Source: Psammoneis japonica (taxonomy: Eukaryota). Taken from it: a DNA stretch of 64,000 bases. Numbering within the stretch: the first letter of the stretch is position 1; each line of letters begins with the position of its first letter. Where the stretch lies: positions 124,001 to 188,000 of the forward strand of contig QPGO01000080.1 in assembly GCA_008632985.1 (NCBI GenBank), given 5' to 3'. The translations under genes were made by a program, and so were the position numbers. Below, piece after piece: positions 1,552 to 34,571 of the stretch. The notes under the pieces are model-generated. The model worked only from the letters and a program-made list of their open reading frames with translations, did no database searches and was not told where the DNA came from.

Positions 1552-1694
1552 TGCACCATGCTCGAAGAACGAGTATAAACGAAAGTAGAATCAAGTATGA
1601 AAAGTGAAAATTATGAGATTAAATTTTACTCTGTGATTTTTGGTTTCTCCGAACGAGTTCTCAATGGCCTAAAGCTTCTATACTGCTTCTACAG
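1552..1694 (+). repeat. Dispersed repeat, TA-intact copy (partner at 34427-34571)
   Basis: Aligns to 34427-34571 (e.g. GCTCGAAGAAC, AAAGTGAAAATT, GGTTTCTCCGAA.GAGTTCTCAATGGCCT). Confidence 0.85.
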
Positions 1695-2010
1695 ACAAAA
1701 GGCCTTTCGGAGAATATATTCGTGACAACAGATTGTCCGGATACGATTGCCATTGACACGTAAGATGTCAACATCGTCAATCGATCGTATTTGCAATTTT
1801 CGACATCCGATCAACTCTGTGTGATCGTTCTGTCCTTTGTACGCATCCACGACTGTGGTACGATTGACATATAAATAACATATAATTCTGAATATGTGTG
1901 TAACAGTCGCATGCTGCACCTGTGCAATTTTCACCGTGGGGAAGCACTGAGTCACGAGTGGGCGGGACTGACAACTTCACATTTACATGTGCTTGCCTCA
2001 GTCCTTGCTT

Positions 2011-2099
2011 TCAGTGCAGATCGGAGATGGATGGACCAATGAGAGATGGTGGTCTGTGCCTCCCCCCTGTGCGAGTGGGAGGTTGTTTTCGTGATCTGC
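2011..2099 (+). repeat. Dispersed repeat or possible DNA-element terminus (inverted partner at 63131-63211)
   Basis: TCAGTGCAGAT...GAGATGGTGGTCTGTGCCTCCCC is shared with the reverse complement of 63131-63211, where it interrupts a copia coding remnant. Confidence 0.6.
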
Positions 2100-2337
2100 T
2101 TCGACGACGTGCCTCATGCCGCAGAAGCAACATGCGAGCCTGCGAGCACCCTTCGAGCCACAGCAAGCTTGCTCAGACTGAAAACAATCATTTCTGGTGC
2201 TCTTCTACACAATTTCTATGCAACAACTCTGAGCGCCAAATGACTCCTGTTGATGCTGCAAAAATCAGCCCTCTGTGCTGTCAGGCGGAGCTCTGATGCT
2301 CGCGCGGGTTCGAATCCCTCCTGCTCACGAGGGGGGG

Positions 2338-5300
2338 TGCCAAAAGTGTCTCGACAAGACAAATCAGTGGCAAACAGCAACCTAATCAAGATTGTGAGAA
2401 GATCCTCGAGTGGATTGCTCGGCATTGCACTGATGCCCTCAGAATGTCAAAGACATCACCAAATGGTCTTGCTTTCCGAGAACCGAGCCAACCACACGTG
2501 GGACACATCGTGAGTTGAGTGTGACATTTTCATTGTGACCGGCAGACCAACCAGCCAATCAGAATCGTTTTTGATGACAAAGGACCCCTTCACTTGTGGA
2601 GCACCAATTGCCCCACAATGTTCACTTGGGGAACAACGGTTGTCTCACAGCCTTCAGGTCAAAACACTCCCCTCAATCAAGACTTGGTCGCATCGTCAAG
2701 CTGGATTGCATGCAAAGGGACAAAACATCATTGTGTGATGGCAAAATTCACATGCAAACATCCATCAAGTGGGGAACTCCAGACAAAAACCCACTTTGTC
2801 AGCAGGGAGCTCCAAGCAAAACCCTCTGCACAGGCAGGTGGTTCAGCAGGACAGCCCATTCCACCTTCCCTCCCCAAGACAATGCAAGATCATTCTGACA
2901 AACCGATTGCACTTCTCCCCTGATGGGAGTGCCTTGGTTAGAAGATCACTGGGGTTGAGATGCGTGTTGACATGCGCCACTCTCCATTCATCTCTGGCCG
3001 CACCTTCTTGCACAAAGTGGCAAGCCAGACTGTGACATTTCTTCTTCAGCGTTGAGTCGGGGACAGAGGTGTTCACCAGAACAGACTGGTTGTCTCCATG
3101 GACATGGGCTGGTCCGACAACCTGGATCCCCATCATCCGGAGCTTGCAGCAAAGCCCATGGATGTGCTCCATGCACTGTTTCATGCTGGTGAACTCTGAA
3201 CCAAATGAACTCGTTTCAATGCTCGTCTGCTTCTTGGACATCCAACAGACAGGTGCCGAGTTCAAACAGATGAGAAAACCAGTCCGAGATCGGCGAGTGA
3301 TCGAGTCGCCAGCATGATCAGCATCCACAAAAGCACGCATGATCATGCCAAATCCTCTTGCTTGAGGCATGTCATCAGGCGCATCTCTTCCGCTGTTGCC
3401 AGACCGAACTCAGAAGTTGTCCAGTCTCGTCGAGCAAAGAGAGCTTCATCAATGGCAGGACAGGTGGGGTCAAATGCCATCTCGGTGTTGTGATGCCTCT
3501 TGAGATGCACAAAGACATGGCACACCTGGTTGAGGTGCCCTTCTCATGGCATGGCCAAGTGCAATGACATCACAGACACCTCAAGACAAATGTCGACATG
3601 CCCCAGCTCAACCATCCAGTGCAGGATGCCAGCAAGCAATTGACAGTGCGCAGCATCAGTCGGAGTCAATTCCTTGCTCATGTCATGCTCAGGATGATGC
3701 GAGCTGCTGAGTGGGGTTGGAGCCTTGGCAGGCAACTTCAAACCCTTTGACTCCAGGAAAGTCTCGACATTCTCAACCGATGCTTGAGTGTGCTGGGAGG
3801 AACTGAATGCCCATGCCTTGGCCCCATTCTCAAGTTCCACCTTTCGCAGGTGTCCTCCAAGGCACAGACTTGGAGGTCTGATCGATGACTCCTTCAATGG
3901 GAAGCACTTGCCAATCTCCCCTCGTAGAATCTCCTCGGCATTGTTGGAGATGCATGGAACATCATCGGTGTAGAGGAGGACATGTTCCCAGCACTCCGTG
4001 CCATCCGACTTGAGTGCTTCACACATCCACACATCAGGGTCAGCCCTGCAAGGTTTGAAACCAAGATGGGACACACACGCACGCAGATGATTCCGGAAAT
4101 CTCATCCCACCGACTTGCCACCATGCAGAGCCCGACGAATGAGGGCTCGCTTGCCAACATTCTTGAGACCGAACTCTGGACCACATGCAATGCAGTGCTT
4201 TTGGGATGAAGGAGCCTGAAGGCATGCATTCTGAATGTCTGCTGCCATCAAGTCAATGTCATTCAAGGCAGCGTACATCAGGGCAATGCGCGCACTTTCC
4301 CTGGAGACAACACCAGCACACGTCGACCCCTTGGGACTTGAAGTCTTGTGTCCATCAAGGACCCATCTGGCCTTCCTAGCCATGGTCATCTTAACATCAA
4401 ATGTCAGGTGACCTGACTGTTTGGACCAACCAACAGGAGTCGGAGTGTCATCATCCAAGATCTCGAATGTGACACCCGCATCACGCATCTCCTTCTCGAT
4501 TGCTTGTGCCCAAAGTTTGTTGCCATTCTGACTGTCAAGTTCAAGTGCCTCTTCCACTGTCTTGGGAAGCTTGACCCCACATTTGTGCGTCACACGTCGC
4601 ACACATGCCTTGACCGCAGATACGATGACATCTTGCTTGCGAAGGGTGCACGACATCCACCATCGAAAAGCTGGTTCATCATCAATGCCTCTGGCTTTGG
4701 CAAATTCTGCAGTCTCCACTGGGTGCGATTCCTTCATGTCCTTCAGGGAGACCCATGACTCGGTCCCATCCTTCCACAGAACCAGGAATTTCCAGCTGCA
4801 CATCGTCTTGCGCAACCGTTTCTGCTTGCCAACCTTGGCGCACATGTTGTCCTTGGTCACTGCCACATCATCTTTGGCGAAATCGAGCATGCTGTCAAAA
4901 ACGTTGAGAGTGCAGCCCTCCGAGTCAACTTCAGAAAGCAAGTTCTCAGCGATGATGTTGGCAGCATGTTCCTTTTCACCTCCCCATCAGGAAACTCGAC
5001 TTCGTAAACCAAAGTGTTCATGATCGGGTTGTCATTGTACGTGCCGACCGATCGACCATCTGGATCCACAGATCAGCCAATTGTGCGGGCCTGCCTTAAC
5101 TTGTCACCCTGAGGCAGAGCAACCTCAGCATGGATGAGTTGATCATGCAAGGGGGTCGGGTCGATGGCATTCCCAGTGGCGTCAACTGGGTCATCAAATT
5201 CAGGGAGATCTCTGGGCTTTTTGTCTGCATCCCCATGCGGAATGAACTGCTTGCCTGTGGAGGACACGGGACAAGCCGCAGAGCCCCAGTGTGATTCAAT

Positions 5301-5958
5301 GCACTGGTCAAAAATCTCATGCTTGCGTTTCTCAGTGTCGCTGTTCATCTCAGCAACTGAAAGGGGTCAGACAGAACGTCGTGGCGCAACATTGCCATTG
5401 CCCTTCAGCACCCACTGAGCCATGTCGTTTCCTTCTCCTTTCGCGGGGCCTGGCACACACCCGAGAACTTCGCGATCAAACGGGAAGGGGTTGGTGTGCT
5501 CATGGAAGCACCACCAGTCATGCCATCCAAATTGAGCAAGGTTGGAGATGTCACCTTCTTCCCCTGTCACAGAGAAGTGCGGGTTCCTCCCCTCAAGTTG
5601 GGACAGGTTCCGGGCCGTCAAGTTGCCAATTCTTGCCTGTCGCTCAAAGCAGCAGTCCCAAAAAGGCAAAGGGCACAAGGACTCTTTCATGTCCTTGCGC
5701 ACTGCCTCCTTGAGCAAGCCAATGCACAGTTCAGCATGGTTCGACCATGGTGTTCCTTCCTCCAGCAGCCCAAGGCCAGTCCCAATGGAGTGGAGAAATT
5801 GTCGAATCTCATCAGACTTCTGTGCTGGGTCGCTGTCACACATGATCACCTCCAGTGCACCCACTTCCTTGGCAAACATCTTGAGTGCCTGAGGCATCTC
5901 AGATCGAGCATGCATGGGCACCACATGAACAAAGTCCTTGTCAGTGACAAACAACTGC
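2338..5958 (-). mobile_element. Degenerate 5'-truncated Ty1/copia (CoDi-like) retrotransposon: integrase, RT, RNase H, PPT and probable 3' LTR
   Basis: Frameshifted fragments: integrase (5367-5950, TPWSNHAE), WKDGTESWVSLKDMKES linker, RT (KARWVLDGH, DIQNACLQA, LLYTDD), RNase H (FVDADHAGD..TRRSRTG, ETSSFGSE, GDNQSV). PPT GAGGGGAG at 2667-2674 is followed by TGTTTT. The far end of the LTR is uncertain. Confidence 0.9.
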
Positions 5959-5959
5959 G

Positions 5960-6113
5960 CGCAGTGAGAGCCGTGAGGTCGCGTGATGCATGGGGAGGAG
6001 GAGTGCAACACACAGCCACTTGTGAGAGTTGATGCATCACGGTGACATGCTGCAGCCTTTAAAAGTCACAAAGGTCATGACAAAAATGACCTTTTGTCTG
6101 CATGCATGCTGCA
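5960..6113 (+). mobile_element. 3' fragment (PPT plus 110-bp LTR at 6004-6113) of the TRIM family at 40776-56750
   Basis: TGGGGAGGAGGAG followed by a 110-bp TG...CA repeat matching 40776-40885 and 56641-56750. Confidence 0.8.
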
Positions 6114-6114
6114 C

Positions 6115-6325
6115 CAGCTCTGGGTGGGACCTCGCACTGCTGGGCTGTGCTCAATTGTTTTTTGTCATCCGTCGCATGTTTCGCGCGCACATTTCTGCGT
6201 GTTCCATTGTAAAAAAAGTTCCACACTGCCTGTTTTGTGAAGCCAAAGGCTTTCTGTTTTCTGCATTTATGACAACAAAAACATGCTGGGCACACTCTTT
6301 AATGTCTGAAGAACACACCCGGGCA
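6115..6325 (+). repeat. ~210-bp non-autonomous interspersed element (copy 1)
   Basis: Aligns end to end with 15057-15269. Differences are mostly TG/CA/TA interconversions. Confidence 0.85.
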
Positions 6326-7158
6326 TGCTGTCAAAAATGTGCTTCAAGTGTGGAGGAGGAGATGCGTTTGCAAAATTGCCTCTTTTTCTGTTGGCGATCA
6401 TTCATGTTTTCATTGCTCAACGACTTTGCTGTGGAGCTCGCATGCAAAATTCCACGGGCCCAATGTCACAAAAGTCCCGCCTGGGGCTGGAACCCGTCAG
6501 GACGATGAAGGAGCACGTGTGACGAGAATGGCAAAATCACATCAGACTCGAGCTGACAAGCCAAATCAACAAATGCATTGTCATCAACATCAGAGGCAAA
6601 GAAGTCAGACATGATGAGAGAGAAGAGCAAAAAGAGAATCTTTTCCGAGCAGTGGTGTGATCCCAGTCACAGTGATCAACGCTCCTGTTCGAAACAAAGC
6701 TGGAAAAGCAAGAAGATGAAAAATCCGGAGTTTGACCGGTCACAGTCGCAAAGACTAGAACCAGTCATCTTGGCTCGGAGGTACCCTCCTCCAAGTCAGA
6801 TCAATCCAGGAGCAACAGCTGTTGGGCGAACGTGCTTTCGGCAGGTCGTCTCCATCTAAACTTGGGCACGAAGAGCACTGGGAAAACCCCCAGACGCACT
6901 GGCGATCAGACCGCCTTCGACGATCTCGCGCGCGCGCACGCTCTACCGGTAGCTAGTAAGCACTTCCAAACGACGCCCCCCAGCTAGGTACGTATGTACG
7001 GTATCATACGGTACGACTTGAAAAATGAGAATGTCACTGGGGCATTTGGCATTTGACAACCTGCTCAAGTGTTTTGATCCCTTCATTCGTTCATGATGTG
7101 ACCGCGCATTGTCACTTTTGCTTTGACGAGTACAAACACCGCTTGGTGCTCTGCAACC

Positions 7159-8172
7159 ATGGCACTGCAACGCAATCTTTTTGCTTTGCCTCTTCTCATG
7201 TTCCTCATGGTGTTTCGCATCTACTCAGAAACGTTCATGTTTGTGTTTGTGCAGCTTGAGGAAAGCATGATTCCGATTTCGAACAAAGGAAAAAGTCTCA
7301 GCTGTGTATGGCAACCAAACAATGACACTGAATGCGTCAATCTCCTCACACGCCGAATTTACAGGGATGCCACTGCTTCAACATATCGGTGGCTCTTTTT
7401 TGGAGACTCAACGATGTATCGCATATTCTCTAGAAGTCCTCTGTCCCGAACCATCATGAATGAACCGAAAGCTGATTGTTGCAAGGAACTACAATTTGGT
7501 CGCTGCAATGCGGATTCATTCCTGCATTTTAATAGGACTATGCAGTGGAACAAACCCAACTTTTCTGCTGGCGAAGGTCCGGTCCGATTCGGAGAACAAA
7601 ATCCGTTCTGCACCGATTGCTCCGGGTGCAATTCGCGATTTCTTTGGTGCACTTGTGGTGATCGAGGAGGCGGCTACGCCGCCATTGAGTTTGCCCGAGA
7701 TGTTGAGCTGCAATCTGTCCAGCATGGCACAACTCAAGAGAACTGGGCATCTTATCTCGCCAAGGAATGGAACTCAAATCCGGATCAAAATCGGCCGATC
7801 TGTGTCATCCAGGCCGGGATTCACGATGTCTTAATCCCCAACATAACAACCGAACTATACTTGGAAAATGTTGAGTGGTATTTGCAAATGATGCATTCAC
7901 AATGTAACCATATTGTCTGGTTGGGCAACACAAGCCCCAAGACGGATGATTTTCCACAGAAGAAGAACAAGACGCTGGAATGGAATCACGGCATACGCGA
8001 CAAGATACTTGCCACACACTTTCCAGATAGCAGTTCTTTTGTTGATGTCTTTGATGCTTCCATCGACTCTCGCATGGCGGATAACATTCACATGACTGCA
8101 CCATTCTACCGTAAATTGGGTACAACGTTTCTCACCGTCATGAAGTCTTCTCGCCCTGACATAATTGAGTAA
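7159..8172 (+). CDS. Membrane-anchored SGNH/GDSL-like hydrolase or O-acyltransferase (PC-esterase-like)
   Basis: Uninterrupted ORF with an N-terminal hydrophobic helix, FFGDST block and C-terminal DNIH (DxxH). Normal Tyr and TA content. First in-frame ATG is at 7159. Confidence 0.75.
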   Translation: MALQRNLFALPLLMFLMVFRIYSETFMFVFVQLEESMIPISNKGKSLSCVWQPNNDTECVNLLTRRIYRDATASTYRWLFFGDSTMYRIFSRSPLSRTIMNEPKADCCKELQFGRCNADSFLHFNRTMQWNKPNFSAGEGPVRFGEQNPFCTDCSGCNSRFLWCTCGDRGGGYAAIEFARDVELQSVQHGTTQENWASYLAKEWNSNPDQNRPICVIQAGIHDVLIPNITTELYLENVEWYLQMMHSQCNHIVWLGNTSPKTDDFPQKKNKTLEWNHGIRDKILATHFPDSSSFVDVFDASIDSRMADNIHMTAPFYRKLGTTFLTVMKSSRPDIIE

Positions 8173-8466
8173 ACAGGATCAAATTTGTGTGGCTCAGTGA
8201 ATACGTAACATTTAAACTTTTTCTTTCAAGATACAAAGGTCTTTAGTTTCTTTGTTTGACAGCATTCGGACCGACTAAATATCCAACGTCTATTTCGCAC
8301 TACTGTACACTCCTGTCGACACAACTAAGATGCCACGAGATTCTCATGAGCGCACATAATATCGCACGGTTCCGTCTACACCCAGAGAGAACACGAAAAG
8401 CGAGAATCGATGTCTTATTTTTGCTCCTGTGCTACTAAAACCAAAGGCCTCCAAAGACTGATGGCT

Positions 8467-10489
8467 TTATAAAATGATAATGGATGACACTTTGAGAAAG
8501 GAATCGGGCGCATGGACGTGAACAGTGACATTGTATTGGCCATTGTCGTTGGGTTGCCAATCGTACTTTTTGTTGCCATTCAGCAGGACCATGCAATTGC
8601 CGAATTCCTCTGCTTCTGACACTGGCTGATCATTGACAGCTATTGTAACATTGCCATTGTTGATTTCATTCATACCCACTCCCGGTGGGCACTTATTCAT
8701 GGGACAACTTGCTAGACACAGCACGATTATGGATGCTTGCTTCAATCGATTCTTTTCTAGATACACATCCAATTCAGCCTCATTGGGCAACACAAGAGAC
8801 GTGGCACCATTGGCAGTCTCGAGATGGAACCAATCCTTGTAGTCAATCTGCACCGTGCGATTGACTTTTCCATTGTACTTGTCGTGGTCCGATGCATCGT
8901 ACACGAGACGCCATTTGCTATTTTCGTCACTGGTACTTGGAGGTGCTTCATATTCATTTCTCGAACCTTCATAAAAGACGCCGGGTGTATTGGATGAAAT
9001 TCCCATGTAGCGAGATTTTGATGGCAACAACGCCGTGTGACATAAAGCGCGATTACGCAACATGACGTTTTGCTCAGGAATTTCAGACAATAACTCGGAG
9101 TCATTCAAGAGCTTGAGTCCCTTTTCTTTAAACAACTCGTAGTCTTGGTCTTGATGATTTTGTATTATTGCCATAACCTCTCTTGGCGAATAGTCTGGAT
9201 TATCTTGATACATGCTGAGCAGCTCTTCTAATGATTCCACTAATGCATCCATCAAAAAAAGAGCTAGGATGTTGCCCTTTAGAGCATGGTGCTTCCTATT
9301 AACATGGTTTGAAAGAGTGAGAATGATACTTAGAATCAGTGTTGTATGGTCCAGGCAGCCATCATAACTCAATGCGAACTCACCATCCAGGATGAAACTT
9401 GACGCGTCCTATGATTGGAACATCCGAAGGTGTGTACTTGTTGAGTCCGCACGTAGGATCACCCCATTCCAATTGTTCACCGCATCTAAAGTGCCTCACA
9501 GGCTTCGGTATATTTTCTATCTGATCATACTCAATTTGCATGTCTGGCAAAGAGTCACGAAACGAAGCTACGCCAAAGCGAGATACCAATGCTGTCATGC
9601 CAATGTCTTCTAGCAATGCTAAGTTTTCCATTCGAGGTTTTTGTCCGACGTCTAACCCAAATAGGGCAGGACGATTCCTATGCATACCAACGCGGTTACC
9701 ATAGAGAAGATTTTGCCAATAGCTTCTACCATCCGTTATCCCGAAGTCCCATGCAATGACATCCGCGTCAAGGCCGTACACCGCTTCACTGCAAAGGGCC
9801 AATTCCGGTGCAGATTTCATCCCTCCCATGCCGTAATTGCGCCCTTCAAGAGCAATACCCGCTGCACCGAACACAGCTTTTGCCAGGCGTTCCATGACGG
9901 CAGTGTAAGACTCATCATGAAAGTTTCCACGACCTAGAGCAACCGAATTGCCGCCCGTAGCCCAAACAAAGCGTGTTTGACCACAGTCTTGTTGTGACTC
10001 GCAAGCCTCGTGCTTCAACTGAACCTGCACTATTTTCTTCATGAGTCGTTGTCGAAACCTAGAACGTGAAACATCTTCACGTGCATCATACAGCGGATGC
10101 GGGGCTATCTTGGCTGATGTGAAGGCCATCTTTCCCACCGATTCGCCCGCGGGTGTCACGAATAACTTGTTAAAATATTCCTCGCCATAATCAACCTTGA
10201 GTTGAGCGACAGCCTCGCTTCTCGCCGAATTGGCACGTGCCAAGAGTTCCTCGATAGCTTCTTTATTGGATCGTACAAACACTGATGAGAAAGAGTTGTC
10301 TTTTCGTAGCTTGACTTTGTCTAGTACTGCGTGGGTCACGAACGACGAGTCTTGTTGTAAGACAAAACCGGCTCCAGCCAAACACATGGCAATCAAAACC
10401 ATGAAACGCATGACGCTCTGACTAACATGGCGATTCAGTTTTGTGACATCCTCTTCATTGCTTCTGAACAATGCATCAGAAGAACCCAT
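8467..10489 (-). CDS. Type II membrane SGNH-like protein, two exons (10489-9384 and 9295-8467; intron 9383-9296)
   Basis: Removing an 88-bp GTGAG...TAATAG intron joins two long ORFs in frame (KFHPG-W-KHHALKGN). TM helix near the N-terminus, plus ATGGNSVALG, GMGGMKS and HPGW motifs. Confidence 0.8.
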
Positions 10490-10700
10490 GGCTTTGGCTG
10501 TTTTGCGGTTAGACGACAAATGGCCGAAGAAGTGGCATGGGTTTCACACATCGTGATAAAACGAAAAGGAGAAGTTTCAAGTTGTGAGCGACGCAAGGGA
10601 ATGCGAAAAGGAAATGATCTGTCAAATGCCAGTGCGCGCCCGCCCGCCCGTCCGCGCAAATTGTGTCTGTCCGTCGACTAACTGCTGCACCTTCGTCACA

Positions 10701-14090: not shown

Positions 14091-14095
14091 CACAT

Positions 14096-18500: not shown

Positions 18501-18699
18501 CTGCTGCTGTTCGTTGAGTTGAAGGGAGAGCCCAATCTCAAGCATGACGGCCCTGATGCTGTCGAATCTGGGAACAGAAGGAGGATAAAGTTTGGTTGTG
18601 GGGGGTGGAATTGTCACCCAAAGGAGCCTGGCTCAACCAAGCATGCTAAGCTGGCTGAGACCTGTGGTCTTGACGCATTCGATTCTGACAAAAACTTGA

Positions 18700-24156: not shown

Positions 24157-25472
24157 ATGGTGGCAGACACGGACTCCCTCCTCATTCACAAAACGCGCCC
24201 CGCTCAGTTCGGGAGTTTTCTCCGAACGGTGCCGTTTTTGTGCGTCACAGGTCTGATGATGCTTCTGCTGGACATTCGCCGCGGAATCGGACTGCTGAAA
24301 TCGACGGTTCCCCGTCAATGGCAGGAGATGCCTGTGTCCGCTGGTGCAAGACCAACAGCAACAGGAGTGGCGGACAAACAAGGTGGTCTCAAAAGATTCT
24401 CTACTACACGGATAATAACAAAAGGACTAATTGGTATGGCTTGGGACAAGAGCCGTTTGCTCAGTGCAAAGTCAAAGGTTGTTTTGCTGTAGAGAATGAC
24501 GGAACGCAGGATCTTAGCAATTTTGATGCAGTGCTCATAAATCCATGGGCTGGTCAGAACGGCACTGATTTTGCTGCAAACAACAGCAGTCAGAAACCGC
24601 TTACCAGTCCCAAACCCAGGAGAGCAAAGTTTGTTTTTTATTCGGTGGAAAGCCCTCAGTATCATTCCGCATCACGCTGGGCGGATGATTTCTTTGACTG
24701 GACGTGGACCTACCGCTTCGACGGTGACATGCAACGGGTTTCGGGGCATTTTCCACCCATCAACCAAGTCAATTCATCACCAGCTCTTTCCCATGACTCT
24801 CTGACCTTTGATATGGACGAGTTCAAAAAGAAAGGTCTCCCACTCATGTCTGACGAGATCAAGGCCTACGCCAAGAAACCCAAGAAAATTTCATGGATTG
24901 TATCCAACTGTAAAGCAGTATCAGGAAGAAACGAGTACGCGGCAGAGCTATCGAGGTACATTCCTGTGGACATCATGGGAAGATGTGGCACCATTTCATG
25001 TGATCGCACTTTGGGAGAAGGAAGTTCGTTTTCCGACAACTGTTCTCAAGCTGTTGAGAAGGACTACAAATATTATTTGTCTTTTGAGAATTCATTGTGT
25101 TTGGATTACGTCACTGAGAAATTCTTTCTGGCTTTTCAGCGAAACGTGATTCCAATTGTAATGGGGGGGAATGACTATACACGCTTTGCCCCTCCACACT
25201 CATTCATTGATGTGAATGACTTTGAAGATGCTGAGCACCTGGCGGAGTATATCCAAAAGCTTGAAGAGGATGAAACTCTCTACTTGTCATATTTTTGGTG
25301 GCGCCAGCACTTTGATTTGCCAGTCCGAGGTAACAGTCGCGAACGCAGTGATCTCAATGGGATGTGCCAGTTATGCGAGAAATTGCACAATGTCGACGAG
25401 GAACATCCTCCCCAAAAACCTCTTAACATCACCCATTGGTGGGACGAGAAGGGAAAATGCCGATTGCCTTGA
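24157..25472 (+). CDS. Alpha-1,3/1,4-fucosyltransferase (GT10), copy 1, with an apparent 1-nt deletion at 24391-24394
   Basis: YKYYLSFENSLCLDYVTEKFF GT10 motif. The N-terminal TM region (24157 frame) matches the paralog up to GGLK, then the frame shifts: CTCAAAAGATT versus paralog CTCAAAAAGGTG. Confidence 0.85.
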
Positions 25473-25796
25473 ATGGTAGATAGAACCCATGCACCAGGGT
25501 GGTTTTTCTTGTCTGCATCAGACTCGGAAGGGGACGCCTGGTCCCTCATAAATCTCTTTTTAATTAGACACTCTATGACTTGAGCCACTTGTGCTGCAAT
25601 GACAACAATGACTCTACTGTAGGTACTTGCGCAGGTCGTGTGTTTTGAAGGGTTAGTGTTGATGGAATTTATACCAAAATTCCTACCTCCAAGCTTTGGT
25701 GTAAATTCTGTTCTTCCAACAGTTAGGGTTAGAAAAACTCAGGAACCCAATGAATCCTGGTGTTATTGGCAGAAACCATAACAAAGGTGTGCATTA
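25360..25796 (+). repeat. Left arm of a high-identity inverted repeat (3' CDS and downstream flank of the fucosyltransferase pair)
   Basis: Reverse complement of about 30398-30832. Confidence 0.9.
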
Positions 25797-26522
25797 TTTG
25801 TCCAATTTGCTTCATAAGATTGTGCAACTTGACATTGTCTCCCATGAGATTGTCATCTTTGCAAAACTAGGCCTGACATTTGAGCAACACCATTGTTGCA
25901 AGGGCAGAGGTGGGCTCCATGTTTGCGGTGACGATGTCAAAAAAAGATGATGGGGTTTGACAACAACAAGCAAATTTCACACCTCAGCCCCCACACTAGA
26001 GAAGCCCATCGATTGCTATCGCTGTATCGTTCAGCGTGCTTGGCAAAGTAGATGATGACAGAGTGATTTCAAACTTTGTGCTTTGAACCCCACTACAGTA
26101 GAGAAACCCATTGCTGTATCGTTCAGCGCGCTTGGCAAACTTTTTGTTGTCTCTAATTTTGCCTCACGACAGTGAGTTCTCGTCTGTTATTCTTCTTTTC
26201 ATCAGAAACTGCCTAAGATGAGCATTTGTGAGCAATGCAAACAACTCAAACTTTTTATTGTTGCTGATTTTGGATTCAGTTAAGGACACTTGATCTGCAC
26301 CCTTGCAGCAGTTTATAGTAGTCGGGGTATGGCTCACCTGTTGATGACATTGCTTGGCGGTTCAGCTGAAGATAAACTGGTTATCGACCACATTTGAAAA
26401 TGATAACTTGTTGTAAGCTGCTGTCGAAATTTGATTATTGAATTTTCAGCATAAAACCACCCGAGACAAGATAAATTTTTAGCTTGATTAACGGAATGTA
26501 CCAAGCCAAATGACACCAGAAA

Positions 26523-26753
26523 ATTAGTCAGAATAATGCAAATTCAAGTGCACAAATAGAAATACCACAAATTCCAAATTTGTAAGTAAACATGCATGTA
26601 GTAAGTCCTGGGATGAGAATTTCCTTTATGCCAAAACACTTAAACGTTAGTCAGAATGTTGCAAATACGAATGCACTAAATGAAATAGTTCCGATTTTGT
26701 AATAAGTAAACATTCACGTAGTAAGTCCTGGGATGCGAATTCCCTTTGCGCCA
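26523..26753 (+). repeat. Diverged tandem duplication (~123-bp units)
   Basis: TTAGTCAGAAT...TAAGTAAACAT.CA.GTAGTAAGTCCTGGGATG.GAATT occurs twice. Confidence 0.75.
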
Positions 26754-26845
26754 CTTGGTGATAAATTCTCGTGTCACATACAGAGATGTGTTGCCATCAG
26801 TTACAACAAAGAATCAATCAGTAAGCTATCAGGATGAAACATTAA

Positions 26846-27085
26846 GGCGGGTCATCCCCGCGTTTATCCTTCGGTAGAATTACCGTGGCATTTGAATCGC
26901 GCACGAAAACGAGAACATCAGGCACCGTGATCGAAGCACGACGATGACGGTAATATCGACGTAAGTCCGAAACGTAGTGGTCCGTGCGCAAACACCACGG
27001 TGAAGCACGGTGAAATTCAAGAAAAATCATGCAAATCACGAGCTATTCGGCCAAATTCGAGCTAAAAAAGTAGCAAATGACCCCT
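26846..27085. mobile_element. Possible small TTAA-flanked non-autonomous DNA element (Kolobok-like termini)
   Basis: TTAA|GGCGGGTCAT ... ATGACCCCT|TTAA, a short imperfect TIR. Confidence 0.3.
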
Positions 27086-27169
27086 TTAAAGAAAATAGAA
27101 TAAGGAGTAACATGATAAAACTTGAAGGTAAAATGAAAAGGTGACGGTGTTGGCTTTTTATTGATTTTT

Positions 27170-28810
27170 ATGATTTTCTCCATTTGAGCAAGAAAGCAAC
27201 ATCCAATCGCTCATCTTAGGACATTGTGGTCTGCTGAGTCAACCTATGCGAGAGACCACCCATTCCTTCGGTCCCTTATTTTTGACAATTTTTTTCGTCC
27301 AATCTCTAATCTTAGGTCTTTTTTAAAACAAGCAACAGATCTCATGTAACCTCCCTTGACTGTTGACGAATTTATCCTTTCAAGGTAGAAAACAACGTCC
27401 AATCGCTCATCTTAGGGCATTTTTATCTTTTTCTGTACCCACGCAGTTGCCTTGTTGAAGTAAAATATTCAATTATGAAAAATGCCAAAAATGAACGAAC
27501 CCTTCTATTCAATTACATAGAGAAGTTAGAGAAGTATCAGCTTTTTCGACCGCTACAATTTTGGCCAATGATATTGCAAGCCCGCGAAGAGATCCGTGCT
27601 ATAGAAACTTGGACGACACATCTGAATGGGTGAGGGTAATATTTCCGGCATCTTCTGTCCTATTCAAACTTTTTGATTATGCACCGGTGTCGTCAAATGC
27701 AACAACAGGTCATATAAAGAAAACTAGTGATGAAATAAAAAAGATCTTTTGAGCCCTACAAACTTCATTTGACAAATTTATCCTTTTGAGGCCAACCCTA
27801 ACCGAGCGAAAAAAGAAAATGAAAAAGACTTAAATAGCTCGAAAAGCTTGAACTCACCCGGATTTTCCCCGCAACTAGGCCGAAACGAAAAAAGAGTGAC
27901 ACTCTTCTTTCACAAACCGGAGGCATGAAAAAAGAAAAAAGAGTGCGTATGCTACTGTACATTTTGTACATGCGTCTTGGCTTTTGTAGGACACTACCAA
28001 GCCAACCAAAGTTCGCCTTCACTCACCGAATTATCAAGTCGCCATGGCGTCTCTGATTGTTTTTTGACAACTTCTTTCAACTTTGCATCTTAGAAGTAAC
28101 ACCAATCGATGATATGAGGTACATATGATATGTCACTTGAAAGATTACCGGTCTTGATGCATCATAGAAAGTCGACGGATAAGTTCACTAAAATAGATCT
28201 TCATGTCGCAGAAATAACCATACTGAATAATTTAGGTACGACTCATTCAATGGTGTTGTTATTATGTTGATTGCTTGTAGAGTAGGGGCTCGAAATGACC
28301 CGAGAAGTGTGCAAAGACCTTCCACTTGACAGCCACTTAAATCACCCTTAGCCTGATGTGTTTGTGCTGAACAAAAAAGAAATAGCACCCACAGACTAAG
28401 AAAAATATGGAGGTTCTAATGGTGTTATTATTATTGTCATAAGGTAGACATTCGATGCCGGTATCGGCCGTCATCATCCGGATATTTAGCTTTTTAATTT
28501 TCGGCTAGGGTTGGCCTGAGCAAGGGAATACATGCAATCGCTCATCTTAGGACTCTTTGAAACAAGTAACAGCTCTGTTGTGCACTACAGTACCGGTATG
28601 AACTACATTTGATCATCCTATGCAAGAGACCACCCATTGCGTCCGAGTGTGAGTAGAAAAGAATCTTTGGTCCTTGTTTTTTTACGAATTTCTCCTTACT
28701 ATACAAGAGACCACTCATTGCGTCCGAGTGTAAGTAGAAAAGAATCTTCGGTCCTTGGTTTTTTACGAATTTCTCCTTTTGAGGTAGAAAACAACATCCA
28801 ATCACCCAAC
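27170..28810 (+). repeat. Degenerate AT-rich repeat array (CAATCGCTCATCTTAGG unit; 80-bp tandem at 28625-28778)
   Basis: Motif recurs near 27204, 27400 and 28536, and degenerately at 28799. AGAGACCAC.CATTGCGTCCGAGTGT.AGTAGAAAAGAATC occurs twice. Confidence 0.7.
27790..28516. mobile_element. PIF/Harbinger-like MITE with 16-bp TIRs and 3-bp TSD (TGA)
   Basis: TGA|GGCCAACCCTAACCGA ... TCGGCTAGGGTTGGCC|TGA. Excision restores the host repeat unit (AATTTATCCTTTTGAGCAAG...CAATCGCTCATCTTAGG). Confidence 0.8.
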
Positions 28811-30397
28811 GAAGACGTCTTCTAGTTCCTCAATGACAGTGTGCTGCAATGCTTGTTTTGGGTTCAGGACAATTTAAAGAAACGGAAGCATCAACGCAGT
28901 CAAGTGCTTCGCGGCACCCGCACTATCGCTTCTGCCACACTCCTTGTTGAGTGTACTGGCATTGTGGCTTGCGCCGGTGTTGGACAAAGGTGTAATAGCA
29001 CTGAAAATTAACAGTTTCCTCCCGAAAGTGTTTTTTGTATTCAACGGAAATAAAAATCTAAAATCACATAAGAAAATTGTGCTTTTATATACGCATAAAT
29101 CTCCTATTCAATTAGTCCGTCTCTTCAATGACTGTGTCTACGAGCTGTCATGTGCTTGGTGGTTGTCTCTTATTGCTCTACATGTGGCGTAGACATTGTT
29201 GCTTCGTCTCCGATGATTGATCACTTAGGATGCAGACACTAGCCTACTCGTTCATTCCCCTAAATGTTGGCGCGAACTGGCGATAGACAGGCAAACACAT
29301 ACGGAGCTCTACGTAGAGGACCAATTTTAGCGATGACTTTGCCCCTATTTAACTTCTGTCAAAATGGGTGCCTTCCCTAGCCATGGGCTATTCCGTGGGA
29401 TCAACTAGGTCTTATCGCTACTGTTCGACACTACTGGCATGACCCTGCATCTACATCTGATGTGTCTACCGCCCTACCGATACTAAGCACTGTCATTTCG
29501 TATTTAATTTGGACATGCTTCAATACGAAATTGATTATCTAAGAAATATATCTTTGAATAATGACTACATGCTTTGTACACGTAAAATATAAAAATTAAA
29601 TACAAAATGTAGTCATTTGTAGTCACTCGGGAGGAAACGGTTAAGATTTTTTTCTTTCTTTTCTTTCTGAAACTCCTCTTTCAACAACCTGTAAATAAAG
29701 CTTAAAATTTTATAGGTATAACGACCACCATAGCTCTAGTCACCAAATTAATCACGAACTTATCCTGATGCTTGTCTGTTGTTGGAATGCCGTGGCCACC
29801 GCTGTGCAGAAATGACATTCTGGGCGTTCAATTTTCTCTCAGGGAGAGTTGAAGAACAATGTGGAAAGACGATAGAAGGCTGAAAAAGTATAAAGCCTCA
29901 ATGAAATACACAATGCAGGATTCCTTCTGATGCAACAGAAGTGGTGTTGTCAACGGGACCTTCGATTCGAATCTTCACTGAGCTACCAAGTTGAACGCGC
30001 ACATTCTCAAGCTTGCCACTCTTGTTATGCTTTGACGTATTTATCCTTTGAATATACGCTAAAGAACCTGAGTATGCTGAATTTTCGAAACGCCATTGTT
30101 TGTTATATTTGCGCAGTATTTCAGTCGGCGAGCCAGAAACACCACACGAAATCTTTTTGAAAAGGGCAAAAAGTAACATACCCAAATTTGGGTTGTAGCA
30201 GGCCTCATAGAAATTTGACGGGCCGGGGGAAAATATGCTCATGTTAGGACTTTTGAAACAAATAATATCTCTTGGGTTGTAGCAGGCCGCATAGAAAGTG
30301 AACGGGCCGGGGTTCTCGGCCCGCCCACTTGAATAATGCGCTCACGTCAGGACTTCTGAAACAAATAATGTCTCTTTTGCGCTATTTTGGTTGGGGT

Positions 30398-30832
30398 TAA
30401 TACACACCTTTGTTACGGTTTCTGCCAATAATACCAGGATTCATTGGGTTCCTGAGTTTTTCTAACCCTAACTGTTGGAAGAACAGAATTTACACCAAAA
30501 CTTGGAGGTAGGAATTTTGGAATTCTATCTCCAACACTAACCCTTCAAAACACACGACCTGCGCAAGTACCTACAGTAGAGTCATTGGTGTCATTGAAGC
30601 ACGAGTGGCTCAAGTCATTGAGTGTTTAATTAAAAAGAGATTTATGAGGTGAAGACCAGGCGTCCACTTCCGAGTCTGATGCAACAAGAAAAAACACCCT
30701 GGTGCATGGGCTCTGCCATTCAAGGCAATCGGCATTTTCCCTTCTCGTCCCACCAATGGGTGATGTTTAGAGGTTGTTGGGGAGGATGTTCCTCGTCGAC
30801 ATTGTGCAACTTCTCGCAAAGCTGGCACATTC
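30398..30832 (-). repeat. Right arm of the fucosyltransferase inverted repeat
   Basis: Reverse complement of 25360-25796. Confidence 0.9.
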
Positions 30833-32033
30833 CATTCTTTCCAAGACCATGGTGGCTGGGCGAACCAAAGTACTGTCGCCACCAAAAATAGGACAAGTAG
30901 AGAGTTTCATTCTCTTCAAGCTTCTGAATGTATTCTGCAAGGTGCTTGGCATCTTCAAAGTCATTCACATCAATAAATGAGTGCGGAGGTGCAATGCGAG
31001 TGTAATCGCTTCCCCCCATTACGATTGGAATCACGTTTCGTCTGAATGCCATAAAGAATTTCTCTGTAACGTAATCCAAACACAGGGAATTCTCAAAAGA
31101 CAAATAGTACTTGTAGTCTGTCATGACAGCTTCAGAACAATTGTCTTTAAGGTTTCCATGTCCAACGGCGCGGTCACAAGATATGCTGCCACATTTCCCC
31201 ATAATGTCAACAGAAACGTTTCTTGACAGCTCTGCCGCGTACTCGTTCCTTCCTGATTCTGCTTTGCAGTTGGACACAATCCATGCAATTTTCTTGGGTT
31301 TCTTAGCATATGCCTTGATCTCATCAGGCATGAGTGGGAGTCCTTCTTTCACAAATTTGTCCATGTCAAAGGTCATTGAATCATAGTTCGGACTTGACGA
31401 GTGATTGGGTATAGAACTTGATGACATGTTGGCTTGGTTGAGAGGTGGAAATTGTGCTGGTAGCCATTGGATGTCACTGTCAAAGCGGTAACTCCATGTC
31501 CAGTCAAAGAGATCATCCGCCCAGCCTGACATGGAAAAAGACTGAGGGCTTTCCTTAGAGAGGAAGACATATTTTGCTCTCCTGGGTCTTGGATTGTCAT
31601 GCAATATCTGCTTGGCCCTGCTATCGGACATTATGTTATACTCAATGTTCCATGGATGTACGAGCACTGCATCAAAATCGCGTATATCCTGTGTTCCATC
31701 ATTCTCGACAGCAAAACAATCTTTGACTTTACATTCAGCAAATGCCTCTTGACCTAAGCCGAACCAATTAGTCTTTCTATACGAAGCCGTGTAATAGAGC
31801 ACCTTTTTGAGACTACCTTGTTCGTCGGCCAATCCTGGCGCTGTTGGCGTTGTGTCAACTGGCACAGAGATCTCCAGGTCCGGACGTGGAAGCGGGATTT
31901 TCGACAGTCCGATTAAAATGCGACTGTTCAGCATCGTCGCACCAGCGATAGTCAGCAGAAACGCCTTTCGGAGAAAACTCGAGAAAAGAACGGGATGTTC
32001 TTTGTGAAGCCGGGAGAGTATGTTTTTCGCCAT
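30720..32033 (-). CDS. Alpha-1,3/1,4-fucosyltransferase (GT10), copy 2, intact
   Basis: Continuous ORF with a TM anchor and ESP, WTWSYRFDSD, AWIVSNC and YKYYLSFENSLCLDYVTEKFF motifs. ATG at 32033 has the same TTCAGGACATGG context as copy 1. Confidence 0.93.
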   Translation of the reverse strand: MAKNILSRLHKEHPVLFSSFLRKAFLLTIAGATMLNSRILIGLSKIPLPRPDLEISVPVDTTPTAPGLADEQGSLKKVLYYTASYRKTNWFGLGQEAFAECKVKDCFAVENDGTQDIRDFDAVLVHPWNIEYNIMSDSRAKQILHDNPRPRRAKYVFLSKESPQSFSMSGWADDLFDWTWSYRFDSDIQWLPAQFPPLNQANMSSSSIPNHSSSPNYDSMTFDMDKFVKEGLPLMPDEIKAYAKKPKKIAWIVSNCKAESGRNEYAAELSRNVSVDIMGKCGSISCDRAVGHGNLKDNCSEAVMTDYKYYLSFENSLCLDYVTEKFFMAFRRNVIPIVMGGSDYTRIAPPHSFIDVNDFEDAKHLAEYIQKLEENETLYLSYFWWRQYFGSPSHHGLGKNGMCQLCEKLHNVDEEHPPQQPLNITHWWDEKGKCRLP

Positions 32034-32846
32034 GTCCTGAAACAACGGCGAGCCGATTGTGAGGCGAGAACTGCAACAATCGAAAAAACACAAAATTACA
32101 GAAATCACAAATCTGTCTCTGCGACGCAAAAAAAAAAATCTCATGGAAAGAGCACGTCTTTGACAAAGTCCTCACCTCGATTCACGGAAGTTATTGACTT
32201 GATAGAATCAGTGAGAAGGGCCGCGTCCTTTTCTTCCGTGACCTGGCCTTGACTTCTCGGAAGTGTGTTCTCAGCTACTCCAGTAAGAACCACTCAGCGG
32301 TAAAAGCCGCATGAGGGGTTACAAGTCCGTGGGGCATTTGAAGTGTATGCTTTACTGCAGTGTACTTTCGAACTTGCACAGCCGCATTTTATCGAGGTCC
32401 GTCAGTTGGTACCGGTACCATGTACGCGTACGGTACCATAGCTCGAATCGTGTATCGGACACAGTCGAGCGCGCTTCTCGAGCGATCGCCAGGATCAAAT
32501 AAGTCGGTCCGTCCGTCAACATTGCAATGTACCGGTACCTACTCTACTCTCTAGAGGGTACTCTATCATAGCTACAGTAGTAGCTCTCTAGAGAGTAGAA
32601 GTACTTCTAGTAGAGAGTAGAGATCAAGATAGTGGATACGCTTTGGGAAAACTTTTGGTTACGTGCAGTAAAAGCCCTTTTGTGGCATAAAGCTTTGGTA
32701 AAACATTTGGAGAGGTGCGGAAAAGCCTTTTTGTGCAACAAAGCTATCATAATTTATGTGTTGGAGCTTTTAGAGCCAGCCGTTTGTTCTTTCAAAACCA
32801 CGCGTGTTGGTCGCAAGGTGCTTTGCCGCGCGCAAACTGCACTTCT

Positions 32847-33775
32847 TCAAGCGCCGCTCTTCAAGATGTCATTCTTGGAACCAATGCATTGATTGCAAAA
32901 TTTGTAATAGTCATGCTTTTCAAGAAGATGAGCTTTGGCAATGCTCTGCAGTTCGGGGTGGTTCCACATGCATTCCTTTGATTTGTCTCGGCGGCGATTT
33001 GTTTCCCGAGCCACAAAATCAGACTCGATGCGCTTCTGTTGTAACCTATTGTCCATGTGTGCCATGTATCCCGACAAATCTGCAAAGTCAAAACACTTCA
33101 CATTGAAATTCTCCAACAGCTTCATGGAAAACCGTTCCAGGTTTTTTGCATTGTGATCCAGTTGCTTCCGAAAGTCGATTTCATCGACGAGCTTCTTGTT
33201 GTCGCCGTGAACGCATTGAAACGGTTTCCCAAACATGTTGGTCATCGAGTGCAAATGATCAAGGGGCTCACGACAAGGCACGTGCAGTTCCAGCGGCATT
33301 GTCCATTTTGAAACAGATTGGGCCACAATGTCCAGTGCGATTCCAAGCTGATGTAGTCACAATCCTCAAATCCAATTTCTTTCATTGCTGCCAACGGTAC
33401 TCTGTTTCGGTTGTGATTCACCCACACCTTGCCAATCGAATCTAGTGTCCTCCATTTGCCAGTTTTCCGAATTCTCTCATTTGCTTGATGAAAATCATAG
33501 GAATAACCCTTGTGTCCGCACACACGTTCGTATCGCGCTGCCAATTTCCCGTTGACTGTAGTGCCTGCTGTCTTGGCCATGTGAACATGTCCATAGATGG
33601 TTGGATGGGAGACAAAACCTTTTCTGTGAGTCAGTTCAACAAAACGATCATTCACTCTTACACTGTGAGTCACAAAAGCCTTCTCTTCTATGGCGTTGTG
33701 AAGCATCAGAAGGTGCACCATCAGAATGGAGATCGCAACCAAAATAAAGATCATGAAAACTGTGAAATGTTTCAT
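32847..33775 (-). CDS. Membrane-anchored sulfotransferase-like protein with an apparent 1-nt deletion near 33306-33309
   Basis: Signal anchor and HVHMAKTAGTT (PAPS 5'-PSB-like) in ORF 33242-33775. CREPLDHLHS (3'-PB-like) in the overlapping ORF 32847-33326. Confidence 0.65.
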
Positions 33776-34426
33776 TTTGCACCCTTCGTTGAAACCTAGG
33801 GCCCTACAGGCTCGATTTATGCGTGTCTGAGTTCGAGTGCCTGCCTGGTGATGTGGGGTATTGAGTCATTCGGTGCATCTGCGGTTTCACTGCAAGTGCC
33901 GGCGGCCTCAAACGCAACATTCTGGAGTGTGTTCCCGTTTCCCTGCCGTTTCCTTCAAACATTTCCCGCTGCGCGAAGGAGGACGCGCGCTACTGCTCTA
34001 GATCGAGTGAATGGACATTCTCGCTGTTGCCAGCACGGCAGCACGTGCTGTAGCATGGTGCCGGCAGCATCTGAGTGCAAGTGATTACGTTAAGGATCTG
34101 CGTGCTGCGGCATTTAAAACAGCTCACATTTCCCACCAATGCTTCACTGTGTCATTTTGACATGCTGCCTTGGCTCACGTGCTCCAAACACTTGTGGGTT
34201 CTTCTCTGGCAGCCCTTGTTGGGGCCGTCAAACCGCTGTGACAGCTGCACATTTGAGATGCTTCAAATGCCACTTGTTGGCCTTTGCCCTCAAGTTTTGC
34301 TAAAATTGGCCTCATTGTGGGAGACAAGCTGCAAGCTTCGGGTGGTTGGCCAGTTGGGAGAGTGTCCACTGGTGGCAAAATCAGCTTCCGTTCGGATGAC
34401 ATCGTGCAGATGCAATCAAGGACAGC

Positions 34427-34571
34427 TGCACTGTGCTCGAAGAACAAGCACAAGTGAAAGTGGAGTGAGCAACAAAAAGTGAAAATTGTGAGACTAAAAT
34501 TTGCTCCATGAAAATTTGGGTTTCTCCGAATGAGTTCTCAATGGCCTGAAGTGCTTGCACTGCTCCTGCAG
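34427..34571 (+). repeat. Dispersed repeat, hypermutated copy of 1552-1694
   Basis: Same sequence with TA>TG/CA and CG>TG/CA changes. Confidence 0.85.

Follow-up and report, generated by a model that had tools for sequence, protein, structure and literature searches.

A 64,000-nucleotide stretch of contig QPGO01000080.1 (positions 124,001 to 188,000; hereafter the window, meaning the whole of the DNA analyzed) carries the marks of a transition hypermutation that converts TpA dinucleotides to TpG or CpA. The change is made at the level of DNA, affects both strands, is a TpA-specific replacement of A:T by G:C, and is contained in kilobase tracts with sharp ends, which hold LTR (long terminal repeat) retrotransposons of the Copia type. 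A dispersed repeat present twice in the window, as copy A in DNA of ordinary composition and as copy B within such a tract, brought the process to our attention. We assign a probability of roughly 0.7 to the reading as a whole, that is, to a tract-limited, DNA-level hypermutation of TpA, presumably the work of an enzyme, of which the two copies of the repeat sample the two states. The two copies are as follows.

1552-1701, + strand: copy A, which retains its TA dinucleotides (11 TA) and lies in DNA of normal composition (segment 1-2081, TA observed/expected ratio (o/e) 0.67).
34427-34571, + strand: copy B, with 1 TA left, adjoining the left LTR of the retrotransposon Copia1.

In BLASTN, 1552-1701 aligns to 34427-34577 over 152 columns, with 75.7% identity and E = 3.7e-26. 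Nine of the 11 TA of copy A are represented in copy B by TG (6) or CA (3), each reached by one transition; one more is kept, as TTAA in copy A and CTAA in copy B, and the last falls in a poorly aligned patch. There are no reverse cases, as no TA of copy B stands opposite TG or CA in copy A. Transitions of the A-to-G or T-to-C kind separate the copies at 9 of 22 bases within TA versus 9 of 75 other A or T bases (Fisher one-sided p = 0.0045), and at 7 of the 9 conversions the adenine on the mutated strand was followed by a pyrimidine (T-A-Y context), the surviving TA being TTAA. In addition, three CG of copy A read TG or CA in copy B. The substitution strings quoted in the initial annotation are all present as written, and its statement that nearly every alignable TA had been converted agrees with these counts. 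Its description of the two copies as a natural before/after pair holds insofar as they show one repeat in two states, but the pair is not clean. The further differences comprise eight transversions, eight other transitions, and three CA/TG doublets, and because this amounts to ~10% ordinary divergence, copy B is better regarded as a diverged relative of copy A than as its direct derivative.

At ~34572, copy B gives way to the left LTR of Copia1, and the surroundings of copy B (34192-43812) have a TA o/e of 0.09. Only copies A and B were found within the window, even by an ungapped search in purine/pyrimidine space. When the remainder of the repeat of copy B was sought beyond the right LTR of Copia1, and homology was sought to the left of copy B, the scores stayed near the shuffled means (20 versus 23.2 and 24 versus 22.8, respectively). 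An exact metagenome scan with a 27-base pattern common to copies A and B gave no matches. Rfam recognizes no family anywhere in the window, so the repeat is no known RNA gene.

The difference between the two locations extends over many kilobases. Three segments of the left half of the window define the two kinds of DNA.

2082-6757: TA-depleted tract 1, TA o/e 0.07 and CG o/e 0.54, with a sharp edge and a fragment of a Copia element (Copia3) inside.
10944-23589: TA- and CG-depleted tract 2, TA o/e 0.07-0.08 and CG o/e 0.23-0.38, with no recognizable protein family and a sharp right edge at 23561.
23590-32955: DNA of normal composition, serving as internal control, TA o/e 0.6-0.74; it contains a pair of GT10 fucosyltransferase genes in inverted orientation.

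The window as a whole contains 1088 TA, where base composition predicts 4111, and the depleted tracts cover about two thirds of it. In normal DNA (1-2081, 7633-10943, and 23590-32955), TA o/e is 0.54-0.74 and CG o/e is ~0.8-1.05. The depleted kind (2082-6757, 10944-23589, and the greater part of 34192-64000) has a TA o/e of 0.07-0.24, with local values of 0.02-0.1 in the most depleted DNA, and a TG/CA o/e of 1.4-1.8, with TG+CA reaching as much as 2.0. The DNA of host genes is spared, with the fucosyltransferase genes and other gene DNA keeping a TA o/e of 0.6-0.74. When both strands are pooled and tracts are compared with normal DNA, TA falls from 0.61 to 0.07 and, in the older tracts, CG falls from 0.91 to 0.26, while TG/CA rises from 1.19 to 1.76. 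Among the 16 dinucleotides, only these two drop (CG in the older tracts alone), and AA, AT, GA, TC, CC, and the remainder hold their level. The gains of TG and of CA are equal, which indicates that both strands are affected, and GC content climbs from ~41% to ~50% (0.37-0.45 in normal DNA, 0.46-0.59 in tracts).

The edges of the tracts are abrupt, with steps at about 2034, 23561, and 53521, and an edge may fall at the end of a transposon or at a point within an element. At the left edge of tract 1, TA is dense up to 1901-1984, and then only three occur in the next 600 bases; at the right edge of tract 2, there is no TA from 23002 to 23561, followed by 24 in the 500-bp bin that starts at 23501. 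Sequence context matters as well. The ratio of TA density in tracts to that in normal DNA is highest for CTAG (0.30), CTAA/TTAG (0.30), and TTAA (0.28) and lowest for ATAT (0.018) and ATAC/GTAT (0.015). T-A-Y is thus the preferred target, and TTAA, CTAA, and CTAG are resistant, so that the survival of the single TTAA/CTAA site, which the initial annotation had singled out in the repeat pair, holds statistically over the window. Two processes feed the excess of TG and CA, namely loss of TA and loss of CG. Because 54 of 55 CpG-poor 500-bp bins are also TA-depleted, whereas 31 of 85 TA-depleted bins have kept their CpG, loss of TA is the faster process, and CpG decay, the trace that cytosine methylation usually leaves, is nested inside it.

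The right half of the window is largely a nest of retrotransposons, in which the progress of both processes can be followed with age. Pfam recognizes an RVT_2 reverse transcriptase in 46664-51370 (- strand, E = 6.4e-26) and a gag_pre-integrs domain in 58459-59433 (- strand, E = 3e-7), and tblastn with 14 Copia homologues finds three copies (2864-5975, 34839-40351, and 46682-52332). RVT_2 and gag-pre-integrase domains with flanking LTRs place the main substrate of the process among Ty1/Copia elements, and protein homologues of up to 62% identity were found in a search of 1.84 billion protein representatives. Self-comparison gives the order of insertion, as Copia1 (34572-40776, with its right end at 56749-57691) is split by an element X, which is itself split by Copia2.

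2864-5975, - strand: Copia3 fragment, in tract 1, found by tblastn.
34192-40776, - strand: left part of Copia1 (LTR from ~34572) with ~380 bp of depleted flank containing copy B, TA o/e ~0.05-0.1 and CG o/e ~0.2-0.4.
40777-46439: left part of element X, unclassified and nested in Copia1, TA o/e ~0.1-0.26 with CG mostly kept.
46440-53558, - strand: Copia2, the youngest element, nested in X, a nearly open polyprotein with one frameshift, TA o/e ~0.2 and CG o/e ~0.9, with the motif HVDD.
52384-53520, - strand: TA-normal island at the 5' end of Copia2, TA o/e 0.72, its right edge at the end of the element and its left edge inside the element.
53559-56748: right-hand portion of element X; TA depletion sets in at 53521, just inside the right LTR of Copia2.
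56749-64000: right end of Copia1 (to ~57691), followed by a tract depleted of both TA and CG, in which a Copia gag/integrase remnant lies at 58459-59433 (- strand).

Depletion tracks the age of nesting. Copia1, the oldest, has a TA o/e of ~0.05-0.1 and a CG o/e of ~0.2, X has a TA o/e of 0.1-0.26, and Copia2 has reached a TA o/e of ~0.2 with a CG o/e still at ~0.9. Aligned TA of Copia2 stand opposite CA or TG in Copia1 in 21 of 39 and in 27 of 46 cases, and where Copia2 has CG, Copia1 reads CA or TG at 204 of 295. Comparison of the two LTRs of Copia2 (46440-46726 and 53274-53558, 93.5% alike) shows TA/TG singles and CA/TG doublets, which dates the change to after insertion, although from the LTRs alone a doublet that descends from TA is indistinguishable from one that descends from CG. 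The process therefore progresses with the age of an element to near-saturation, with the slower loss of CpG nested within TA-depleted tracts.

The direction of change was read from proteins. The sites used were those with a Tyr in 60% or more of six or more Copia homologues. Of 20 such sites in Copia1, 12 read Cys (TGY), four His (CAY), and one Tyr; the 19 sites of Copia2 include eight Tyr, six His, and three Cys, and the 14 of Copia3 include five His, three Cys, and one Tyr. Conserved Phe sites, taken as a control, are kept in 18 of 21 cases in Copia1, 13 of 17 in Copia2, and 5 of 9 in Copia3, and conserved Trp sites in 9 of 10, 12 of 13, and 7 of 9, respectively. Since the conserved Tyr positions read Cys or His while the controls are kept, TAY codons must have become TGY or CAY. 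Counts at the level of single alignment cells agree with this site-level test. Across 150 Copia homologues the median Tyr content is 3.8% and the median Cys content is 1.2%, and Tyr in Copia1 is down to 0-0.2%; even the catalytic motif of the reverse transcriptase (RT), YVDD, has become HVDD in Copia2. Two further departures from the homologues were seen in Copia1. In 34576-40776, Asn stands opposite a homologue's Asp in 152 of 739 cells, an excess of G-to-A change that fits CpG decay superimposed on the loss of TpA, and Cys and His stand opposite Lys in 62 and 52 of 653 cells, respectively.

The window holds 43 open reading frames (ORFs) of at least 200 residues, counted from stop to stop (200-1568 residues, on both strands), most of which match no family. 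Their abundance in the tracts follows largely from the loss of TAA and TAG, which leaves TGA as the sole stop codon. The consequences of the process are thus a rise in GC, conversion of Tyr codons to Cys and His, disappearance of TAA and TAG stops, and spurious reading frames, such that coding capacity is destroyed without the creation of stop codons.

A family of Copia elements from public environmental assemblies provides a replicate of these observations. Among the 150 best homologues of the window's elements, two RT fragments are free of Tyr and one is poor in it, and all three (P0221, P0249, and P0174) are rich in Cys and His, residues that they mostly carry at the Tyr positions of the homologues. 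In P0249, moreover, 21 of 108 such cells hold Arg, which hints at further change of His or Cys codons. With P0174 as query, 80 environmental loci of a single Copia family were collected, which share no nucleotide similarity with the window. Their TA o/e spans 0.08-0.82 (12 loci below 0.25, 22 at 0.25-0.5, and 46 at 0.5 or above). The RT alignment used 37 near-full-length loci (at least 330 residues and at least 72% identity), 31 of them unique, with the other 43 excluded, and the aligned copies have TA o/e values of 0.10-0.85. A single family is therefore represented by copies in all states, intact ones and saturated ones included. This range, together with the two states of the repeat in the window, fits the proposal of the initial annotation that position rather than family identity decides whether a copy is mutated, where position may stand for chromatin, nearness to a long element, age, or tracts placed by chance.

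In the 31 unique copies, 54% of the cells at consensus TA positions hold TA, 23% hold TG, and 19% hold CA, and 40 of 56 such positions show all three forms, each in at least two copies. Change in the opposite sense is rare, with consensus TG read as TA in 2.8% of cells and consensus CA in 3.4%, versus 42% in the forward direction. A-to-G change affects 427 of 1345 TpA adenines versus 233 of 5077 other adenines. When rates were scored per strand against the ten TA-richest environmental copies, the fraction of TpA adenines hit depended on the following base (0.40 before C or T, 0.20 before A, and 0.14 before G) and less on the base before the T (A 0.36, C 0.31, G 0.29, and T 0.24). The strings of site states contain no clear runs of TG or of CA; no formal runs test was applied to them, as shared ancestry confounds it. 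Among long loci, L017, L052, and L018 have step-like edges, some of which fall inside the element. The size of the switch in these three and in L055 is from 0-3 to 12-26 TA per 250 bp, and that of L052 falls inside its Copia element.

Both sets of elements bear on the possibility that the changes were made in RNA, by an ADAR-like conversion of adenosine to inosine that reverse transcription then fixed, or that a TA-poor composition was inherited from mutated master elements. ADAR prefers a U before the edited A, as a recent preprint states (bioRxiv 10.64898/2026.01.13.699255), and most of the depleted DNA in the window derives from retroelements. Editing of this type, however, would be confined to the sense strand and to the element and would leave the LTRs identical. 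In single environmental copies, the ratio of TG to CA in sense orientation is near 1:1 (22:20, 25:20, and 21:25), which rules out sense-strand editing fixed by reverse transcription, and Tyr is replaced by Cys and His alike. The LTRs of Copia2 came to differ after its insertion, and the mutated DNA includes flank that is not retroelement, copy B among it. Inheritance from masters is opposed by the different products that copies of one family carry at the same sites, and an RT that reads HVDD speaks against the element having transposed once it was mutated. We therefore regard this family of explanations as very unlikely.

The repeat itself has many more genomic copies, which can be seen in the contigs of sequencing runs.

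1235-1880: highly repeated, unclassified dispersed element or elements containing copy A, matched in 1461 contigs, with 18 loose contig ends at 1552 and no Rfam family.

In run X1, 1461 contigs match 1201-2200 at 80% likeness or more, versus one contig in run X2 and none in run X3. The summed depth is 55,000-109,000 over 1541-1846 and 56-70 in the unique flank, although the summed depth of these contigs is not equivalent to copy number. The 18 loose ends at 1552 indicate that many genomic copies begin there. The stretch shared by A and B, which had been taken for a repeat unit of 145 bp, turns out to be a fragment of this longer and very abundant family. Relative to copy A, the variable places in the run X1 contigs are 30 A>G and 32 T>C versus 6 G>A and 13 C>T. 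Among the 40 variable places listed by position, of 102, and with contigs below 80% likeness to the window left out, 18 are A>G or T>C exactly at a TpA of copy A, where ~4.6 are expected. Single TA sites have given both products, as C at 1574 in 28 contigs and G at 1575 in 46, and likewise C at 1404 in 16 contigs and G at 1405 in 13. Because a single step separates TA (or CG) from either TG or CA, while TG and CA lie two steps apart, and because copy A has kept TA, TA is the most parsimonious ancestor.

From two copies alone, the direction of change is formally open, and most genomic copies do have TG or CA at several of the TA sites of copy A. It could therefore be supposed that a RIP-like process (RIP, repeat-induced point mutation) of C-to-T change created the TA dinucleotides of copy A from CA and TG, and that copy B holds the original sequence. 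Several results speak against this. Conserved Tyr codons are Cys or His codons in the depleted elements while the Phe and Trp controls are kept; it is the tracts, at 0.02-0.1, and not the normal gene DNA, at an ordinary TA o/e of 0.6-0.7, whose composition is abnormal; TG and CA forms occur at one and the same site among copies; and reversal is rare in the environmental family. We find a gain of TA in copy A scarcely credible. For the tracts, three independent lines of evidence agree in supporting TA as the ancestral and TG/CA as the derived state, as the initial annotation had supposed, and the Tyr codons and the environmental Copia family extend this support from the tract of copy B to the process in general.

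A further possibility is that the pattern is not biological. Modified bases cause systematic consensus errors in long reads, and in methylated transposons TA and CG might be misread as TG or CA by the base caller or in assembly; the sequencing platform of the window is not on record. In run X1, a contig covers 2037-2200, within depleted tract 1, and matches it with no differences, although it possibly stems from the same sample. Moreover, the products differ among copies and even between the two LTRs of one element, and the long reading frames of genes and of Copia2 are intact. The same signature also occurs in many independent environmental assemblies and, as reported in the main text of the preprint cited above, in Illumina-based mutation-accumulation data of another species, Bigelowiella natans. 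An artifact of this kind thus seems highly improbable.

The alternative that deserves most discussion concerns the chemistry, namely that no deaminase is involved and that TpA transitions arise from lesions, or from error-prone repair synthesis, where repair is poor, as in heterochromatin. Candidates include A-to-G errors of the polymerase-eta type, photoproducts at TA, and decay of a modified adenine at TpA, comparable with that of 5-methylcytosine. The tracts also lose CpG, as the overlap of CpG-poor and TA-depleted bins shows, and in this they resemble methylated silent chromatin, where the spectra of mutation and of repair could be different. TpA and CpG are both self-complementary steps, so that a maintenance-type modification is conceivable. 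However, polymerase eta targets WA (W, A or T), yet AA is unchanged (o/e 1.17 vs 1.18), and ultraviolet light would deplete TC and CC, neither of which has changed. The loss of TA runs far ahead of that of CpG in the young Copia2, and the tract edges are step-like. The corresponding process in B. natans comes in bursts, having appeared, by the account of the preprint, in only 11 of 15 lines, and this points to an activity under regulation. For these reasons, an origin in lesions or polymerase errors seems unlikely to us.

We favor instead, at odds somewhat better than even, an enzyme that deaminates DNA adenine to hypoxanthine, and the hypoxanthine would then be read as G. The deaminase would be directed to silenced foreign DNA, such as the transposon nests, by a cue in chromatin, cytosine methylation, or small RNA. 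Copy B would have been mutated through lying in the tract beside Copia1, and copy A would lie in DNA that is not targeted.

Several considerations weigh against this account. Both the deamination and its targeting are inferred. Copy A is untouched although its family is very abundant and a depleted tract lies ~330 bp away, and Copia2 has retained, within a nest of 30 kb, a TA-normal island of 1.1 kb. Since both have been spared, the target cannot be simply a repeat or a transposon, and the targeting cue may be partly stochastic. The polarity of the A/B pair itself rests on indirect evidence. Weighted by depth, the majority of copies has G at 1575 (93%), 1628 (93%), and 1680 (~100%), and this could mean that the founder of the main subfamily already had TG there. 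The initial annotation had proposed a consensus of genomic copies as the arbiter, with TG or CA at these sites counting against TA as ancestor, and a majority of that kind is what the three positions show. A naive majority is nonetheless an unsafe guide. Most copies are probably simply mutated, and context may fix the product, so that such a consensus could falsely refute TA as the ancestral state. Finally, run X1 may be the very sample behind the assembly of the window, so that its agreement in the depleted tract is not independent.

Several other features of the window may be noted. The TA-normal island of Copia2 (52384-53520) covers the 5' LTR and the leader with the start of gag, and a smaller island, at 48047-48638, has a TA o/e of 0.55. 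A Pfam scan of 46 ORFs from the depleted tracts returned the known Copia remnant as the only significant match, together with two zinc-finger matches and one MEF2-binding match below threshold, and 10944-23589 and the tract at 57.7-64 kb remain without a classified family after it. Within tract 2, a 188-bp tandem duplication lies at 14096-14466 (two copies, 92% alike), and in the printed part of its consensus all TA are in resistant contexts (TTAT, CTAA, CTAG, and TTAG). A 56-nucleotide inverted match (82%) links 2034-2089, at the start of tract 1, with 63141-63196, at the far end of the window, and may be the terminus of another repeat family. The normal DNA contains two recognized genes.

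24108-25472, + strand: GT10 alpha-1,3-fucosyltransferase gene (Pfam).
30720-32171, - strand: GT10 alpha-1,3-fucosyltransferase gene (Pfam).

These genes form an inverted duplication, whose arms are 76-96% complementary (94-96% toward the inner ends) and are separated by ~4.6 kb of TA-normal DNA. The best protein matches are at 40% identity for the fucosyltransferase, 49% for the ORF at 9380-10543, for which there are only weak SGNH-hydrolase-like leads, and 62% for Copia. Every one of the closest named relatives is a diatom: Seminavis and Nitzschia for the fucosyltransferase, Fragilaria for the ORF at 9380-10543, and also Fistulifera. The three best named matches are at 36-57% identity. Judged by these proteins, the host of the tracts is probably a diatom or a close relative, and the best matches, at 40-62% identity, make it improbable that the DNA is from the annotated B. 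natans.

In general, programmed or targeted A:T-to-G:C hypermutation of DNA was unknown until the 2026 preprint on a single chlorarachniophyte, B. natans. The same signature in the window, in a genome that is probably diatom-like and thus probably of a different supergroup lineage, and again in an environmental Copia family, suggests a widespread and overlooked defense of eukaryotic genomes. In both of the cases described here the substrate is LTR retrotransposons, and in the window saturation is reached. The observations also constrain the mechanism, through the T-A-Y context, the step-like kilobase tracts that can end inside elements, and the nested CpG decay of methylation type. We are more tentative, at rather less than even odds, about the broader proposition that a T-A-Y-specific DNA adenine deaminase, directed by chromatin to tracts, is a defense common to distant lineages of the SAR group (stramenopiles, alveolates, and rhizarians) and to environmental algae, as a mirror of RIP. 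Were this so, transposons and integrated viruses would be silenced by erasure of their Tyr codons, a loss of TATA boxes and AATAAA signals would be expected as well, and there would be a natural A-to-G editor that works in the context of double-stranded DNA, a possible natural source of DNA adenine editors. There is also a practical side, as the tracts yield long false ORFs that are a trap for gene prediction, blur the homology of transposons, and mislead majority-rule consensus sequences.

Among known systems, the most familiar comparison is with fungal RIP. In RIP, C-to-T change, mostly of CpA to TpA, renders the DNA AT- and TA-rich and introduces new stop codons. The process described here shares with RIP the tract-limited transition hypermutation of transposons, a dinucleotide context, action on both strands, the inactivation of elements, and an unequal effect on the copies of a family. 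It differs in direction, as replacement of A:T by G:C removes TA and stop codons and raises GC; the tracts are TA-poor and GC-rich relative to their surroundings, the opposite of the RIP polarity. RIP is triggered by duplication and strikes all long repeats. A dependence of that kind is not evident in the window, as copy A has escaped mutation despite the great abundance of its family, although the unit may lie below a length threshold.

Enzymes that edit retroelements or RNA offer a second set of comparisons. APOBEC proteins convert C to U on single-stranded cDNA, leaving strand-specific G-to-A change in retroelements (PMC4866542, in part). Hypermutation that disables retroelements in a short sequence context is common to AID/APOBEC and to the present case, in which the enzyme is a putative one; the differences are that here adenine is the target, both strands are affected, and flanking DNA other than retroelements is included. 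Decay of 5-methylcytosine accounts for a footprint like that of the older tracts, CpG to TpG or CpA, but this is a second, slower process and leaves the loss of TA unexplained. TadA and ADAT2-ADAT3 deaminate A34, which follows U33 in tRNA, to inosine, and in bacterial tRNA-Arg a C follows. This target context resembles T-A-Y and might be taken as a lead. TadA/ADAT2-ADAT3 and ADAR are RNA enzymes without known targeting by chromatin. A deaminase restricted to stramenopiles and fused to SAM and Tudor domains has been described (Iyer et al. 2011, PMC3239186), and it might be a lead toward a deaminase that reads chromatin, and nothing more.

The closest parallel is B. natans. A full-text literature search for the signature outside this species returned papers on fungal RIP and unrelated work only; the SPLASH preprint, considered as a possible description of it, proved irrelevant in the passages checked. 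According to the main text of the study of B. natans (Mettrop et al. 2026, bioRxiv 10.64898/2026.01.13.699255), the new mutations that arose in mutation-accumulation lines within two viral regions, one from an integrated giant virus and one from a virophage, were A>G or T>C in 230 of 231 cases, all at TpA. They appeared in 11 of 15 lines, and the rate was ~6e-7 per site per generation. The same text reports 124 clusters in the genome where TpA is low and CpA+TpG is high, with low-TpA coding sequences enriched for reverse-transcriptase and DDE domains, and proposes an ADAT2-like deaminase, citing ADAT2 enzymes that act on DNA. A term search of that main text found no analysis of trinucleotide context, of CpG, or of retrotransposons. 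The T-A-Y context and the nested CpG decay described here are thus additions to it, although the supplements may hold context data. The present case also differs in its substrate, nests of LTR retrotransposons near saturation, with a TA o/e of 0.02-0.1 versus 0.45 in the B. natans viral region. The mutation rate given above is that of B. natans, and the features of the signature itself are found in both as far as the main text describes them: transitions confined to TpA, TpG or CpA products according to strand, restriction to delimited foreign DNA, and, over the long term, low TpA with high CpA+TpG.

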